NCBI GenBank assembly: GCA_963752475.1 | Contig: CAVVYR010000006.1 | Span: 192,001 to 256,000, forward strand | Reading direction: 5' to 3' | From: an uncultured Chloroflexia bacterium | Lineage (GTDB): Bacteria; Chloroflexota; Limnocylindria; Limnocylindrales; CSP1-4 | DNA: 64,000 bases | In this document: positions 14,979 through 20,589 of the stretch, piece by piece | Layout of the letters: each line of letters begins with the position of its first letter | Numbering within the stretch: position 1 is the first letter of the stretch | Notes under the pieces: generated by a model | What the model saw: the letters and a program-made list of their open reading frames with translations, nothing else | What the model was told of the DNA's origin: nothing | Database searches by the model: none | Program-made: the position numbers and the translations under genes

Positions 14979-15514
14979 GTGAGTCAAAGAAGCCAACCGT
15001 CGCGACCGTCTGGCTGGACGGGTGCTCGGGATGCCACATGTCCCTGCTGGACATGGACGAGCGCATCCTCGACATCTTCACCCGGTCGGACCTCGTGTAC
15101 AGCCCGCTGGTCGATTTCAAGGACTATCCCGACGAGGTGGACGTCTGCCTCGTCGAGGGTGCGGTGTCGAGCCAGGACGATCTGGACAAGGTCAAGAAGG
15201 TGCGCGAGCACACCAAGACGATCATCGCCTTCGGCGACTGTGCGGTCACCTCGAACGTGCCCGGCATGCGCAACCCCTTCGGCACGCAGGCCATCCTCGA
15301 CCGCGCCTACCACGAGAACGTCACCGTCAACCCGCAGACACCCACCGAGAACGTGCCGCCGCTGCTGGCGATGTCCAAGCCGGTCCATACGATCATCGAC
15401 GTGGACGTCTTCCTGCCCGGTTGCCCGCCGTCGGCGGACCTCATCTACACCATGCTCGACGACCTGCTCTCCGGCCGCGTGCCGGAGGTCGCCGGCTCGC
15501 GGTTCGGCCGCTAA
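14975..15514 (+). CDS. hoxY: [NiFe]-hydrogenase small subunit HoxY
   Basis: [28 protein letters not shown]; short single-cluster form. Confidence 0.92.
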
Positions 15515-15528
15515 GGGAGCCCCCACCC

Positions 15529-16947
15529 ATGAGCAAGACCATCACCATCGATCCGGTCACGCGGATCGAAGGCCACTCCAAGATCACCATCCAGCTCGAC
15601 GAGGGCGGCCAGGTCACGGACGCCCACTTCCACGTCACGCAGTTCCGAGGGTTCGAGAAGATCGTCGAGGGCCGTCCGGTCCACGAGATGCCCTCGATCA
15701 TGGCCCGTATCTGCGGCATCTGCCCGGTCAGTCACCTCGTCGCCTCGGCCAAGGCCGTGGACGACATCCTGGCCGTGGACCCGCCGCCCGCGGGTGCCGA
15801 CATCCGCCGGCTCATCAATCTTGGCCAGATCGTGCAGTCGAACGCGCTCTCGTTCTTCCATCTCTCCAGCCCTGACCTGCTCTTCGGCTTCGACGCCGAC
15901 ATGTCCAAGCGCCACATCGTGGGCGTGGCCCAGGAGAACCCGCAGCTGGCCAAGGACGGCATCGCCCTGCGCAAGTGGGGCCAGCAGATCATCGAGCGCC
16001 TCGGCGGCAAGCGCATCCATCCCGGCGGGGTCATCCCCGGCGGTGTGGCCGAGCCGCTGACCGAGGAGGTCCGCGACGAGATCCTGGCGGGTGTGCCGGA
16101 GGCCCTCGAGCGCATCACCCGCACCATCGAGTGGTACAAGAGCAAGATGATGGGCTGGGAGGAGGAGGCCACCCACTTCGGTGACTTCCGCTCCGCCTTC
16201 ATGGCCCTCGTCGACGAGAAGGGCAACGTGGACCACTACGGTGGCCGCCTGCGCTTCGTCGATGCAGACGGCTCGGTGCTCGAGGACTTCGACCCCAAGG
16301 ACTTCAACGACTACATCGGCGAAGCCGTGGAGCCGTGGTCCTACCTCAAGTCCACGTACTACAAGCCCATGGGCTACCCCGACGGCATCTACCGCGTGGG
16401 CCCGCTCGCGCGCATGAACGTGGCCGAGGCCTGCGGTACGCCGCGTGCCGACGAGGAGCTCAAGAAGTTCCGCTGGCGCGTCGGCCGGGTGGCGAGCTCG
16501 TCCTTCCACCAGCACTACGCGCGCCTCATCGACCTGCTCCACTGCATCGAGAAGATCGACCAGATCCTCAACAAGCCGGAGATCATGTCGACACATGTGA
16601 CGGCCACCGCGGGCATCAACCGCAACGAGGGCATCGGCTGCTCCGAGGCTCCGCGTGGCACCCTGATGCACCACTACAAGGTGGACGACAACGGCCTGGT
16701 CGAGTGGGCCAACCTCGTCATCGCCACCGGCCACAACAACATGGCCATGAACCGCTCGGTCGCGCAGGTCGCCAAGGCCTACGTCAAGTCCGACAAGATC
16801 GAAGAGCCGATGCTCAACCGGGTCGAGGCGGTCATCCGTTCCTACGACCCTTGCCTCAGCTGCTCGACGCACTCGCTCGGTGACATGGCGCTGGACATCC
16901 AGCTCCTGTCGCCGGAGGGCGAGGTCATCGACCGCATCAAGCGCTGA
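15529..16947 (+). CDS. hoxH: [NiFe]-hydrogenase large subunit HoxH (group 3d)
   Basis: PVTRIEGH, L1 RICGIC, EAPRGTL, L2 DPCLSCSTH plus a cleavable C-terminal extension. Confidence 0.93.
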
Positions 16948-16963
16948 CCCGCTGCCACCGGAC

Positions 16964-17500
16964 GTGAGTCCACTCGAGAGCGCCGCCCCTGGGGGAGGGA
17001 GCGGCGCTCTTGCGCGTTCCGTGCTGGTCCTCGGCTATGGCAACACGTTGCGGCGGGACGACGGTGCCGGGGCCGTGGCTGCGCGCCTGCTGGCGGCCGA
17101 TCCGCGCCTTGCTCGCCCCGAGGTCGAGGTGCGCGAGGCCTATCAGCTGCTGCCGGAGATGTCGATGGACATCGCGGAGGCCACGCTCGTCGTCTTCGTC
17201 GATGCCGACATGCGCGGCCTGCCCGGCGCTCTCGAGATCCACGAGATCGACCCTGGGACCGCAGCGCGTGACGATGCCGATGCGCGAGGCGATCCGGGAG
17301 CGTCATCGCACCACGTCGGAGGTGGCGAGCTGGTGGCGCTGGCCGCGACGCTCTCAGGTCGCGCGCCGGAGGCCGTGGCCATCGGCATCGGCGTGGCCGA
17401 CCTGGAGCTGGGGGAGGGCCTCAGTCCGGCCGTGGAAGCGGCCCTACCCAGGGTCGTCGAGATCGTGGCCGACCTCGTGGAGGAGCACCTCAGCCATTGA
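16964..17500 (+). CDS. hoxW: Hydrogenase maturation protease (HoxW-like)
   Basis: VLGYGNTLRRDDGAG, VFVDA, SSHH, GEGLSPAV; start uncertain. Confidence 0.8.
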   Translation: MSPLESAAPGGGSGALARSVLVLGYGNTLRRDDGAGAVAARLLAADPRLARPEVEVREAYQLLPEMSMDIAEATLVVFVDADMRGLPGALEIHEIDPGTAARDDADARGDPGASSHHVGGGELVALAATLSGRAPEAVAIGIGVADLELGEGLSPAVEAALPRVVEIVADLVEEHLSH

Positions 17501-17556
17501 GGCTGCCAGCTGGAAACCCGGACTCCACAGGCCTGGGATCGACCTCGCTCGGGGTC

Positions 17557-17740
17557 GGGAGCAGCCACCTCGACGGGGCAGCAGCCACCTCGACCGGGAG
17601 CAGCCACCTCGACGGGGACGGCCACCTCGACGGGGCACAGCCACCTCGACGGGGCGCAGCCACCTCGACGGGGAGCAGCACCTCGACCGGGAGCAGCACC
17701 TCGACGGGGCGCAGCCACCTCGACCGGGAGCAGCACCGAC
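17557..17740. repeat. Minisatellite: about 10 tandem copies of an 18-20 bp unit (GGG[A/G]..CAG[C]CACCTCGAC)
   Basis: CACCTCGAC core repeated directly with small indels and no unique spacers. Confidence 0.9.
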
Positions 17741-17983
17741 CGCTCTCGCTGCTGCCGCCGTGTCGCCTCCATCGACACCGCACGCAGCTTGTGGTCAGGC
17801 GTCGCCAGGGCCGACCCTACCGGCCGATCCGGTGGATCCAGATGGACATATGTCGGCGAGGTCGACGGTAGTCCGACGGGCTGGTGGTCCTGGTGGTCGG
17901 ATCGACGTAGACGTGGCGCCGGCTATGCCCAGCCACGCTCGGTGCAGGCCATCGATCGCCTCGATCGGCCGGATCTCGTGACT
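17737..17983. repeat. 247-bp direct repeat, copy 1
   Basis: Matches 19285-19531; two substitutions seen (gcgccggctatg vs gcgctggcgatg). Confidence 0.95.
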
Positions 17984-18053
17984 GCTATGAAGGGGGCCTC
18001 ACTGGTGAGACAGTGGGTTCTCTTCGGAACCAGCACCAGGAGGCCCGGAAGCC

Positions 18054-19086
18054 ATGTTATACGCCGGATTGGACCTGTCACGGAGGAAGCTCGACGTCCA
18101 TGTCCTCGACGAGGACGGGGCCACGGTCGAGGCGCTCGCGGTCCATCCCGATGCCGACGCGCTGCGGACACTCGCGGAGCGCTTCCCCGGGCCCGTGACC
18201 GCGACCATCGAATCGATGAACGGGGCCCGCTTCGTGCATGACGAGCTGCAGGGCCACGGCTGGGACGTGCTCATCGCCGACGCGGCCAGGGTCAAGGGCC
18301 TCGCACCGCTCGCGGCCAAGACCGACGAGATCGACGCGCGGGTGCTCGCGATCCTCGCCTGGCGCGACCTCGTGCCCGCGGTCTGGCTGGTCCACCCGGC
18401 CATCCGTGCCGAGCGCGAGCGTGCCCGCTATCGGCTGTACCTCGTGCGCCATCGCACCTCGATCAAGAACCGGGTCCACGCCACGCTCTTCGCGTTCGGC
18501 CACAGCGTGCCCGCCACGGACCTCTTCGGGGTCCGGGGCCGGGAGCTGCTCGCGGCGCTCGAGGTCCCCGAGCCCTGGGACCGGACGCTCGCAGCGAGCC
18601 TCGCGCGGCTCGACGCGCTCGAGGCCGAGATCCGCGGCTGCGAAGCCGAGCTGGCACGGCTCGGGGCCGACCACGAGTACGTGCCGCTGCTTGCGGACGG
18701 TGCCGGGGGTCGGGCCCATCCTCGCCTACACCATCGCCGCGGAGATCGGCGACATCGGCCGCTTCGCGAGCGCCAAGCGGCTCGTGGGCTACACCGGGCT
18801 CTGTCCCCGGGTCTACCAGTCGGGCGGGACCGACCGGCGCGGGAAGCTGGCCAAGACCGGCCCGAAGTACCTGCGCTGGGCGCTCGTCGAGGCCGCGGTC
18901 CACGCGGCGAGCCATCCACGCTATCGGAGGAAGTACCAACGCACCAAGCGCCGGCTCGGCAAGCAGCGGGGCAGTGGGGTGGCACAGGTGGAGCTGGCGC
19001 GCGAGCTGGCCACCGCCATCTGGTACATGCTCACGCGCCAGGAGCCGTTCCGAGCGGCAGGCCCCCCTCGTAGTCTGGTCGCCTGA
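18054..19086 (+). CDS. IS110-family transposase/recombinase with one +1 frameshift near 18690
   Basis: N-terminal GLDLS..IESMNG..KTDEIDA (DEDD); C-terminal TVPGVG..EIGDIGRF..YQSGG..GPKYLRWALVEAA in the next frame; length 3n+1. Confidence 0.9.
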
Positions 19087-19200
19087 CGACCCTCGTGTGA
19101 CTTGGGCCGCCGCTGTCACCTACCAGCCAGGTCCTCCCAGCAGGAGGCACATAGAGACATGAGACGCGTTACCGCATCCGCTCCACGACCGCCGCCGGCT
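19053..19200 (+). ncRNA. Candidate bridge RNA/seekRNA of the IS element
   Basis: Stem/internal-loop/hairpin fold holding segments that match the target (19067-19075, 19093-19102) and the donor end (19150-19158); boundaries approximate. Confidence 0.75.
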
Positions 19201-19205
19201 TGACG
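19200..19205 (+). promoter_or_regulatory. Outward-facing -35 (TTGACG) of the IS circle-junction promoter
   Basis: In the circular form it lies exactly 17 bp from TATGAA (17986-17991). Confidence 0.7.
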
Positions 19206-19216
19206 ATCTTCATAGA

Positions 19217-19650
19217 GACTACGAGCCCGACTACGGTCGGCTCCAGCGACAGGCGACTACGAGCCTGACTACGGTCGGCTCCAGCGACCGCTCTCGCTGC
19301 TGCCGCCGTGTCGCCTCCATCGACACCGCACGCAGCTTGTGGTCAGGCGTCGCCAGGGCCGACCCTACCGGCCGATCCGGTGGATCCAGATGGACATATG
19401 TCGGCGAGGTCGACGGTAGTCCGACGGGCTGGTGGTCCTGGTGGTCGGATCGACGTAGACGTGGCGCTGGCGATGCCCAGCCACGCTCGGTGCAGGCCAT
19501 CGATCGCCTCGATCGGCCGGATCTCGTGACTACGAGCCTGACTACGGTCGGCTCCAGCGACAGGCGACCACGAGCCCGACGACGGTCGGCTCCAGCGACA
19601 GGCGACCACGAGCCCGACGACGGTCGGCTCCAGCGACAGGCGACCACGAG
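19217..19650. repeat. 38-bp hairpin-forming tandem repeats (REP-like), GACYACGAGCCYGACKACGGTCGGCTCCAGCGACAGGC
   Basis: Copies at 19217-19254, 19255-19288 (partial), 19528-19565, 19566-19603, 19604-19641 and 19642-19650 (partial); interrupted by the 247-bp repeat. Confidence 0.92.
19285..19531. repeat. 247-bp direct repeat, copy 2
   Basis: Near-identical to 17737-17983. Confidence 0.95.
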
Positions 19651-19677
19651 CGAGCGGATCCAGAGTCCATCGGCGGG

Positions 19678-20589
19678 TCAGGACGATGGCGGCGTGTTCG
19701 ATGCGGGCTTCGGCTCGCGGCTGGCCCAGAGCACGGCCACGATACCGGCGGTGGTGACGGCGATGCCGGCGATGTCGATGGGCGAGATGACCTCGCCGAG
19801 CACGATGATGCCGGCGATCACGCCCACCGCCGGCGCGCCCAGGTAGCCGATGCCGGCGGTCAGAGGCCCGAGTGCCCTGACGATCATCTGCGAGGCCCAG
19901 AAGGCGAAGGCCGTCGCGAGCGGGCCCGAGTAGAGCACCGCCAGCAGCGCTGCCAGGTCCCAGCTGATGGCCCCCAGCCGATCGCCCTCGAGCAAGAGCA
20001 TCAGCAGCGTCATCGGTACCAGCGCCACCAACAGCTGCCAGATCTGCGCATCGAAGGGCGTACCTACCCAGGTGTGCATCCGCACGTGCACCATGGCCAG
20101 CGCGCCGGAGCCGGCACCAAGCACCAGCAACAGCGACGCCAGGAGCGCGCCGTCGGCATCCCAGTCGATCGCGGCCGGGTTCAGCAGCAGCACCAACCCG
20201 GCCATGCCCAGCACCAGGCCGACGATCTCCGCGCGCTTGGGCAGCACCCGCGCGACCACGGCCATGATGGGCACGATCCAGAGCGGTGTGGTGTAGGCCA
20301 GGATCGACGAGCGCCCGGCCGGGATGTGCGGCAGCGCCAGGTTCATGGTGATGATCATCAGCGCGACCGCGAGGATGCCGTAGCTCAGGATGATGGGGTA
20401 GTCGCCGCGGATCGGCCGCTTCAGTCGTCCGGTCGCGGCCATGAGTACAGCCAGCGTGGCGATACCGCTCGCGAGCCTGAGCACACCGTAGGTGAAGGCG
20501 GGGATCGTCTCCAGCCCGACCTTGACCACGACCCAGTGGCTGCCCCACACGACCACCAGGGTGACGAGCAGCAGCCAGGCGCGGGTCAC
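19678..20589 (-). CDS. DMT/EamA-family transporter
   Basis: About 10 TM helices, VWGSHW, GRSSILAYTTPLW, VLGEVIS. Confidence 0.88.
   Translation of the reverse strand: MTRAWLLLVTLVVVWGSHWVVVKVGLETIPAFTYGVLRLASGIATLAVLMAATGRLKRPIRGDYPIILSYGILAVALMIITMNLALPHIPAGRSSILAYTTPLWIVPIMAVVARVLPKRAEIVGLVLGMAGLVLLLNPAAIDWDADGALLASLLLVLGAGSGALAMVHVRMHTWVGTPFDAQIWQLLVALVPMTLLMLLLEGDRLGAISWDLAALLAVLYSGPLATAFAFWASQMIVRALGPLTAGIGYLGAPAVGVIAGIIVLGEVISPIDIAGIAVTTAGIVAVLWASREPKPASNTPPSS

Follow-up and report, generated by a model that had tools for sequence, protein, structure and literature searches.

The window analyzed here, a 64,000-nucleotide stretch of contig CAVVYR010000006.1 from an uncultured Chloroflexia bacterium (assembly GCA_963752475.1), carries at positions 17980-19220 what is almost certainly an insertion sequence (IS) of the IS110 family and the IS1111 type, with a readable bridge RNA, or seekRNA; coordinates are window positions throughout, and the features described below lie on the + strand. 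An RNA of this kind had been proposed beforehand in a sequence-only reading of the window. The assignment is carried by the anatomy of the element, the covariation of its RNA stems among relatives, the covariation of its guide strands with the flanks of the insertion site, the existence of an empty target, and the protein family of its transposase, all of which were observed here. Genome-wide searches covered the 4.25-Mb assembly, which is 88.8% complete.

The transposase gene, tnp (18054-19086), delimited from open reading frames (ORFs), Pfam and NCBIfam, encodes a DEDD/RuvC-like domain and a PF02371 domain. Both domains expected of an IS110-family transposase are present, PF01548 with 57 bits (cut-off 29) and PF02371 with 93.8 bits (cut-off 21.3). 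In the window the gene is split over two frames, with PF01548 in 18054-18689 and PF02371 in 18688-19083, by an extra, frame-shifting G at 18689; this base is absent from a second full copy of the element in the genome, from an internal fragment elsewhere in the assembly, and from a 267-nt RNA-library contig that is otherwise identical to the element. The intact second copy encodes an uninterrupted protein of 343 amino acids, which scores 236.2 bits (cut-off 140) against the NCBIfam model NF033542, “IS110 family RNA-guided transposase”, and which confirms both the frameshift and the repaired length deduced earlier from the window alone. The accompanying claim that this is a compact member holds for the length but not for the compactness: in the text of Siddiquee et al. 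(2024; PMC11187229), IS1111 transposases have 330-350 amino acids and the motif GL-P----S(t)G, a range within which 343 is typical and a motif that GLCPRVYQSG fits.

The frameshift raises the question of whether the window copy is a dead relic, its RNA gene intact in sequence, its transposase broken, and the element no longer mobile. The extra G does break the frame, and the third genomic copy has been reduced to a 498-nt internal fragment (G000:C6:98861-99358, L003), 99% identical to the element, with four single-base deletions and no ends. We nevertheless regard this as a possible rather than a probable state of affairs: the intact copy differs solely by the base at 18689 and could supply the protein in trans, and the indels of both imperfect copies, being of one base each, resemble assembly errors, the identical RNA-library contig being free of the extra G. 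In any event, the relic explanation concerns the activity of one copy and not what the feature is.

The ends of the element are defined by its two full copies together with the uninterrupted paralogous site, which indicate insertion within GACT and without duplication. The unique part spans 17984-19216 and GACT is present at both junctions, so the crossover falls somewhere within GACT; when the junctions are compared with the empty site, GACT alone is in common, as in the site-specific insertion without target duplication that characterizes IS110 elements. On the left, the target half TCTCGT plus GACT (17974-17983, the junction being read against the empty site) precedes the subterminal inverted repeat TATGAAG (17986-17992). 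Its 7-bp partner, CTTCATA (19208-19214), is followed by the terminal GA (the two together occupying 19208-19216) and then by the right GACT copy and the right target half ACGAG (19217-19225), both of these right-hand features being placed by sequence reading. The element is 1237 bp long when GACT is counted to the left end, and the extensions beyond ATGAAG and CTTCAT are then 7 bp on the left (GACTGCT) and 3 bp on the right (AGA), which the text of PMC11187229 gives as the rule for IS1111-family elements; subterminal inverted repeats of 7-17 bp with short asymmetric extensions are described for the IS1111 group in the texts of both PMC11208160 and PMC11187229. In most homologues (e.g., L015) the repeats are about 13 bp, compared with 7 bp here. 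Also as in IS1111 elements, the longer non-coding end is the downstream one, with 130 nt after the stop codon on the right as against 70 nt before the ATG on the left.

The empty paralogous target, TCTCGTGACTACGAG (19522-19536), belongs to the second of two 250-nt direct repeats (D3; 17734-17983 and 19282-19531, 99% identical), whose start-to-start distance of 1548 nt equals the IS plus 311 nt; the target region is a 311-bp tandem duplication of which only the first copy holds the IS. The 14-nt target occurs uninterrupted at 19523-19536, roughly 300 nt away, and nowhere else in the assembly. The second full copy (L002), on another contig (G000:C26:102013-103249), matches window positions 17984-19221 (query 25-1262) and is one base shorter, this single-base offset being the sole difference inside the element; the right flanks of the two copies diverge after GACTA, and the contig of L002 stops exactly at the left end of the IS.

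The first loop of the RNA, the target-binding module (19053-19114), was delimited by sequence reading, folding and covariation. Its outer stem, AGCGGC(A)GGCCC (19053-19064), forms 11 bp with GGGCCGCCGCT (19104-19114), leaving A19059 bulged, and its inner hairpin, GGTCG/CGACC (19077-19091), holds the tnp stop codon TGA (19084-19086) in its loop. Of the two guide strands, the 5' one (19065-19076) complements the top strand of GACT and the right flank. Within it, CTCGTAGTC (19067-19075) is fully reverse-complementary to GACTACGAG (19217-19225; 9/9), or over 10/10 positions when T19076 and A19216 are included. The 3' guide strand (19092-19103) has the orientation of the left flank and GACT, TCGTGTGACT (19093-19102) agreeing with TCTCGTGACT (17974-17983) at 8 of 10 positions, among them the six contiguous bases GTGACT. 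The stems, hairpin, loop strands and flank matches that the sequence-only reading had described for this module are all present. The segment complementary to the top strand lies 5' of the segment complementary to the bottom strand; this guide order and the location of the RNA at and after the 3' end of tnp, both of which had likewise been proposed, are those of the IS1111 seekRNAs in the text of PMC11187229. On its own, the 69-nt target module folds as described (-31.7 kcal/mol, z -2.13). Longer stretches of the RNA are no more stable than their shuffles (z -0.41 and z 0.17), so thermodynamics alone is not evidence, and the case is made by the relatives.

One genome per species was scanned, which yielded 80 homologous loci. 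Their protein identity in the best-aligned segment is 34-87%, and most belong to uncultured Chloroflexota, Actinomycetota and related metagenome-assembled genomes (MAGs). A strict parser, which accepted a locus only if the hairpin arms and the outer stem each had 5 perfect base pairs and the loop contained a stop codon, recovered the target module in 54 of the 80 loci (two further hits, L048 and L053, were false and were dropped), and several loci outside it show the same pattern by eye. From an alignment of 49 sequences, comprising the window and 48 distinct homologues, RNAalifold predicted the outer stem, the inner hairpin and a second hairpin, with 18 consensus pairs. Compensatory changes on both sides were found in 12 of the 18, including pairs in the stem half that lies inside coding sequence; examples are CG 26/GC 19 in the outer stem, UA 38/CG 9 in the inner hairpin, and CG 23/UA 15. 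A structure conserved through compensatory change is expected of a bridge RNA, and the G-U pairs that occur on the + strand (UA 33/UG 12) fit an RNA of the sense strand. A covariance model built from the alignment scored 106.3 bits (E 1.9e-25) at both full IS copies and detected no orphan copies of the RNA elsewhere in the assembly.

The guide strands covary with the DNA that flanks each element. With the ends located by conserved motifs, each right flank was scored at seven guide positions of the 5' strand, and each left flank at six of the 3' strand. On the right (49 loci, 36 distinct guides), cognate pairs agreed at 5.47 of 7 positions and non-cognate pairs at 3.22; on the left (42 loci, 30 distinct guides), the corresponding values were 3.73 of 6 and 1.89, and on neither side did any permutation reach the cognate value (0/10000 each). 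As guides and targets may be common by descent, the permutations were repeated within three large subfamilies, with the same outcome on the right (5.42 versus 3.72, 0/10000) and on the left (3.88 versus 2.68, 0/10000). At least 5 of 7 positions agreed in 43 of the 49 right-hand loci, and at least 4 of 6 in 28 of the 42 left-hand loci. Further, elements with identical guides occupy different sites that have just the guided bases in common. The loop strands are thus complementary to both strands of the target and change with it, on both sides of the insertion, which is the point on which the earlier proposal had been made to stand or fall. Considered together, the covariation of stems and of loop strands in relatives takes the matches beyond chance.

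A second module, which would bind the donor (19114-19166), follows the first. A closing stem, TGTCAC (19114-19119)/GAGACG (19161-19166), encloses a 5' strand (19120-19132), the hairpin CCTCC/GGAGG (19133-19147) and a 3' strand (19148-19160); the pairs of the hairpin covary among relatives, and the closing stem has compensatory variants there (CGTCTC/GAGACG, CTTCTC/GAGAAG, GTTCTC/GAGAAC and GAGCAGC/GCTGCTC). Within the 3' strand, CATAGAGAC (19150-19158) is identical over nine bases to 19211-19219, the right element end plus core. The hairpin and this copy of the right end were found as first described. So was the difficulty with the other donor guide, for which nothing could be identified beyond GGTC at 19130-19133: when a left-end guide was sought in the 5' strand of the second loop, in the window and in the homologues, only a core-adjacent GGTC or AGTC fitted, and in left ends of the ATGTCATG type these do not fit at all. 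The donor loop is therefore only half explained.

This leaves room for an explanation in which only the target loop guides, the ends are recognized by the protein via the subterminal repeats, and CATAGAGAC is kept for RNA processing or protein binding. In addition to the missing left-end complement, it can draw on the behavior of the right-end copy. Within the RNA, ATAGAGA hardly varies, and 50 of the 51 loci compared have CATAGA at the right end (CATAAA in L019), an invariance across the clade that makes covariation poorly testable; of the three variant loci, L019 covaries (ATAAAGA in both places), whereas L038 and L064, to judge from their sequences, do not. Short IS1111 seekRNAs of 82-96 nt have also been reported with target matches only, in the text of PMC11187229. 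We consider this explanation unlikely, however, for the second module has the architecture of the first, with its compensating closing stem, strands of 12-13 nt and covarying hairpin; its 3' strand ends in the core plus three bases, as does the 3' strand of the target loop; and donor-binding nucleotides are reported in IS1111 bridge RNAs in the text of Durrant et al. (PMC11208160).

That the stop-codon hairpin is instead a terminator, an attenuator or a translational signal, with the flank matches arising by chance or from carried-over target DNA, is highly improbable: the hairpin is stable, GC-rich and placed exactly at the stop codon, but no T-run follows it, a terminator scan of the + strand over 17800-19400 found a single site, at 17998-17998+19 in the left end, and none at the hairpin, and such a signal would leave unexplained both the loop strands that change with their flanks (36 and 30 guide variants, 0/10000) and the conserved second module.

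We therefore return to a two-loop bridge RNA, and postulate the following. The 3' part of the element (at least 19053-19166) would encode the RNA on the tnp strand, and the RNA would probably be cut from the tnp transcript. The first loop would read the insertion site, its 5' strand pairing with the top strand of the core plus right flank (AGACTACGAG) and its 3' strand with the bottom strand of the left flank plus core (GTGACT). The second loop, with its copy of the right end and core, presumably reads the joined ends of an excised circle, in which the ends would meet as ...CTTCATAGA-GACT-GCTATGAAG.... From the published biochemistry of the family, we infer that the RNA is produced, associates with the transposase and guides recombination.

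Apart from the left-end guide and the two non-covarying donor-loop variants, a number of observations weigh against this interpretation. (i) The right flank of the second copy fits the guide only at AGACTA, and its left flank is missing at the contig end. (ii) The left-side match in the window is modest, and 14 of the 42 left-hand loci agree at fewer than 4 of 6 positions. (iii) There are clear misfits on the right side, in L006 (2/7) and L052 (3/7). (iv) Twenty-six of the 80 loci failed the strict parser, having imperfect stems or being truncated or distant (34-44% identity). (v) Rfam 15, searched over 17500-19800 with E up to 10, contains no matching family; its two hits there, to the GRIK4 3' untranslated region (E 0.53) and to CRISPR-DR53 (E 7.7, in a 19-nt tandem repeat), are chance hits. 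(vi) A sigma-70 scan of the + strand upstream of the RNA found no internal promoter. (vii) The window transposase is frameshifted, and this copy could act only with the protein of the intact copy, unless the extra G is an assembly error. (viii) RNA libraries (four runs from three studies) contain only small shares (0.05-0.18) of the element's words, in contigs that have a depth of 2-6 and therefore cannot show transcription, one of them being derived from a relative rather than from the window element.

The contig from the relative, 166 nt long and recovered from an oligo-dT RNA library of sediment (run X4, depth 2.6), spans 19031-19167, which is almost exactly the two-loop RNA. Eight of its 11 differences are accounted for by position: four fall in the target-guide strands and one in the hairpin loop, and the second loop has three, all in its 5' strand. 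We take this contig as no more than a hint.

The one unusual detail of the element is that the RNA begins inside tnp. Its outer stem starts at codon R333, just beyond residue 331, where the NF033542 profile ends, and the last 11 codons of the gene (RAAGPPRSLVA) double as the outer stem, the 5' loop strand and the inner hairpin's 5' arm. An in-frame stop codon lies in the hairpin loop in 50 of the 54 parsed loci, the four exceptions being frameshifted or rearranged copies, so the proposal that the target-binding loop doubles as the last codons of the transposase is borne out. The three to four residues that precede LVA differ freely among relatives, in step with the guide, and the loop strand occurs in at least three independent length variants (11, 12 and 14 nt), which are compensated by length changes in the stem region so that the frame is preserved. 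Conversely, in three distant relatives from an Acidobacteriota MAG (L075, L077 and L078; 37% identity) the guide begins 18 nt after the stop codon and does not overlap the gene, indicating that the overlap is specific to the clade of the window element. No statement of an RNA-gene overlap in IS1111 elements was found in the literature text (PMC11187229, PMC12288879 and PMC13604230, figures and supplements being outside this scope).

A guide RNA gene can thus extend into the tnp coding sequence, and an annotation limited to “non-coding ends” would cut such a gene short. Whether the overlap does more than save space is another matter. Translation of tnp and folding of the guide might exclude each other on one transcript, and a ribosome that terminates there would set the new protein free directly beside the guide RNA that belongs to it; the consequence would be co-translational loading in cis or else a switch, dependent on translation, between messenger and guide states. 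The stop codon in the loop in nearly all parsed loci and the length variants that keep the frame hint at such a function. Against it, the protein profile ends just before the RNA, and the tail may be passive read-through. We find a functional overlap, as opposed to mere compaction, doubtful; if it were true, each retargeting of the guide would rewrite three to four C-terminal residues.

Published IS1111 elements agree with this one in the size and motif of the protein, the repeats with their extensions, the position of the RNA, the order of the guides and the two-loop plan, and the system is accordingly of a known kind. It resembles the seekRNA elements ISEc11, ISPa11, ISKpn4 and ISPst6 (Siddiquee et al. 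2024; PMC11187229), whose text describes a DEDD transposase of 330-350 amino acids with GL-P----S(t)G, subterminal repeats with 7- and 3-bp extensions, a longer non-coding region downstream of tnp, guide segments that overlap at the insertion point, and no target duplication. Unlike in those elements, as far as a comparison with the text alone extends, the last 34 nt of the gene here contain the outer stem, the 5' loop strand and one half of the inner hairpin, and the hosts are uncultured Chloroflexota- and Actinomycetota-like genomes. The IS621 bridge RNA of the IS110 group (Durrant et al. 2024; PMC11208160) is likewise a single RNA with two internal loops, for the target and for the joined ends, in which either loop provides one strand per DNA strand and the core dinucleotide is in common; according to the same text, it differs from the RNA described here in lying in the left end, upstream of the gene, in its reversed guide order, and in the 2-3-bp subterminal repeats of its element. 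A left-end partner guide such as that of IS621 is not identifiable here. Hiraizumi et al. are said to have also worked on the IS621 bridge RNA in 2024.

The transposases of IS4321 and IS5075, IS1111-family elements of enterobacterial plasmids, are only 26% identical to that of the window element in an alignment that covers 96% of its length (residues 5-334), and the two elements share its long right non-coding end. In an IS5075 copy (L086), AT-rich non-coding sequence follows the stop codon. The Acidobacteriota-MAG relatives L075, L077 and L078 have end motifs like those found here (ATGAAAAC and GTTTTCATAGAAG), and their guide, TTGTCATCCTT, is complementary to the right flank in two of the three copies. 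Given also that the text of PMC11208160 reports predicted bridge RNAs in 93% of the IS1111 elements in ISfinder, the element is a clear but, apart from its RNA start, ordinary member of the IS1111 group, and the understanding of the mechanism is unchanged by it. What it adds is a clade of IS1111-type RNA-guided recombinases, well resolved and derived from uncultured bacteria of soil and sediment type, in which the RNA, the target guides, the ends and the empty target can all be read. Its 36 right-guide and 30 left-guide natural variants show which positions are programmable and constitute raw material for the engineering of bridge recombinases.

Other features of the element were noted in its ends. 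TTGACG (19200-19205), a -35-like hexamer of which TTGAC is kept in relatives, would stand 17 nt from the left-end TATGAA (17986-17991) in a circular junction, and the two are a possible junction promoter in the subgroup of the window element, by analogy with that described for ISEc11 in the text of PMC11187229. We do not claim such a promoter, because the spacing is not conserved, being 7-8 nt longer in relatives with 13-bp inverted repeats. A hairpin in the 5' untranslated region (17994-18046; -32.9 kcal/mol, z -2.38), in which the Shine-Dalgarno-like AGGAGG is paired with the left end, may block the translation of read-through transcripts that enter from outside the element; its sequence pattern is also present in homologues.

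The genome encodes at least four further IS110-family genes above the NCBIfam cut-off (C6:36059-37186, C6:353408-354535, C1:212144-213139 and C6:339374-340333, among others), two of which have identical scores. None of the other IS110-family genes (13 matches) is associated with an RNA of the type modeled here.

The insertion site is intergenic; a short array of 38-nt units, each containing a palindrome, begins there, and a membrane-protein ORF, named from its translation, lies downstream on the opposite strand. The sequence-only reading had called the target a junction of repeats resembling repetitive extragenic palindromic (REP) sequences. A palindromic repeat is indeed present locally; a dispersed REP family is not, since the 38-nt unit has only six copies in the assembly, five at this locus and one elsewhere, and the 14-nt target recurs just once, a low copy number and local clustering that led us to reject a dispersed REP target of the type used by ISPa11, IS621 and ISPpu9. 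The right flank of the second full copy, GACTAGATGAGCCTG, matches the guide only through GACTA and resembles the GAGCCTG part of the 38-nt unit. Upstream of the element, 15022-17500 contains an ORF resembling the NiFe-hydrogenase large subunit (RIEGH ... DPCLSCSTH), followed by one resembling a maturation protease, both likewise named by reading their translations. Directly downstream of the maturation-protease-like ORF, at 17557-17734, are about 9.5 copies of a 19-nt unit, GGGAGCAGCCACCTCGACG.

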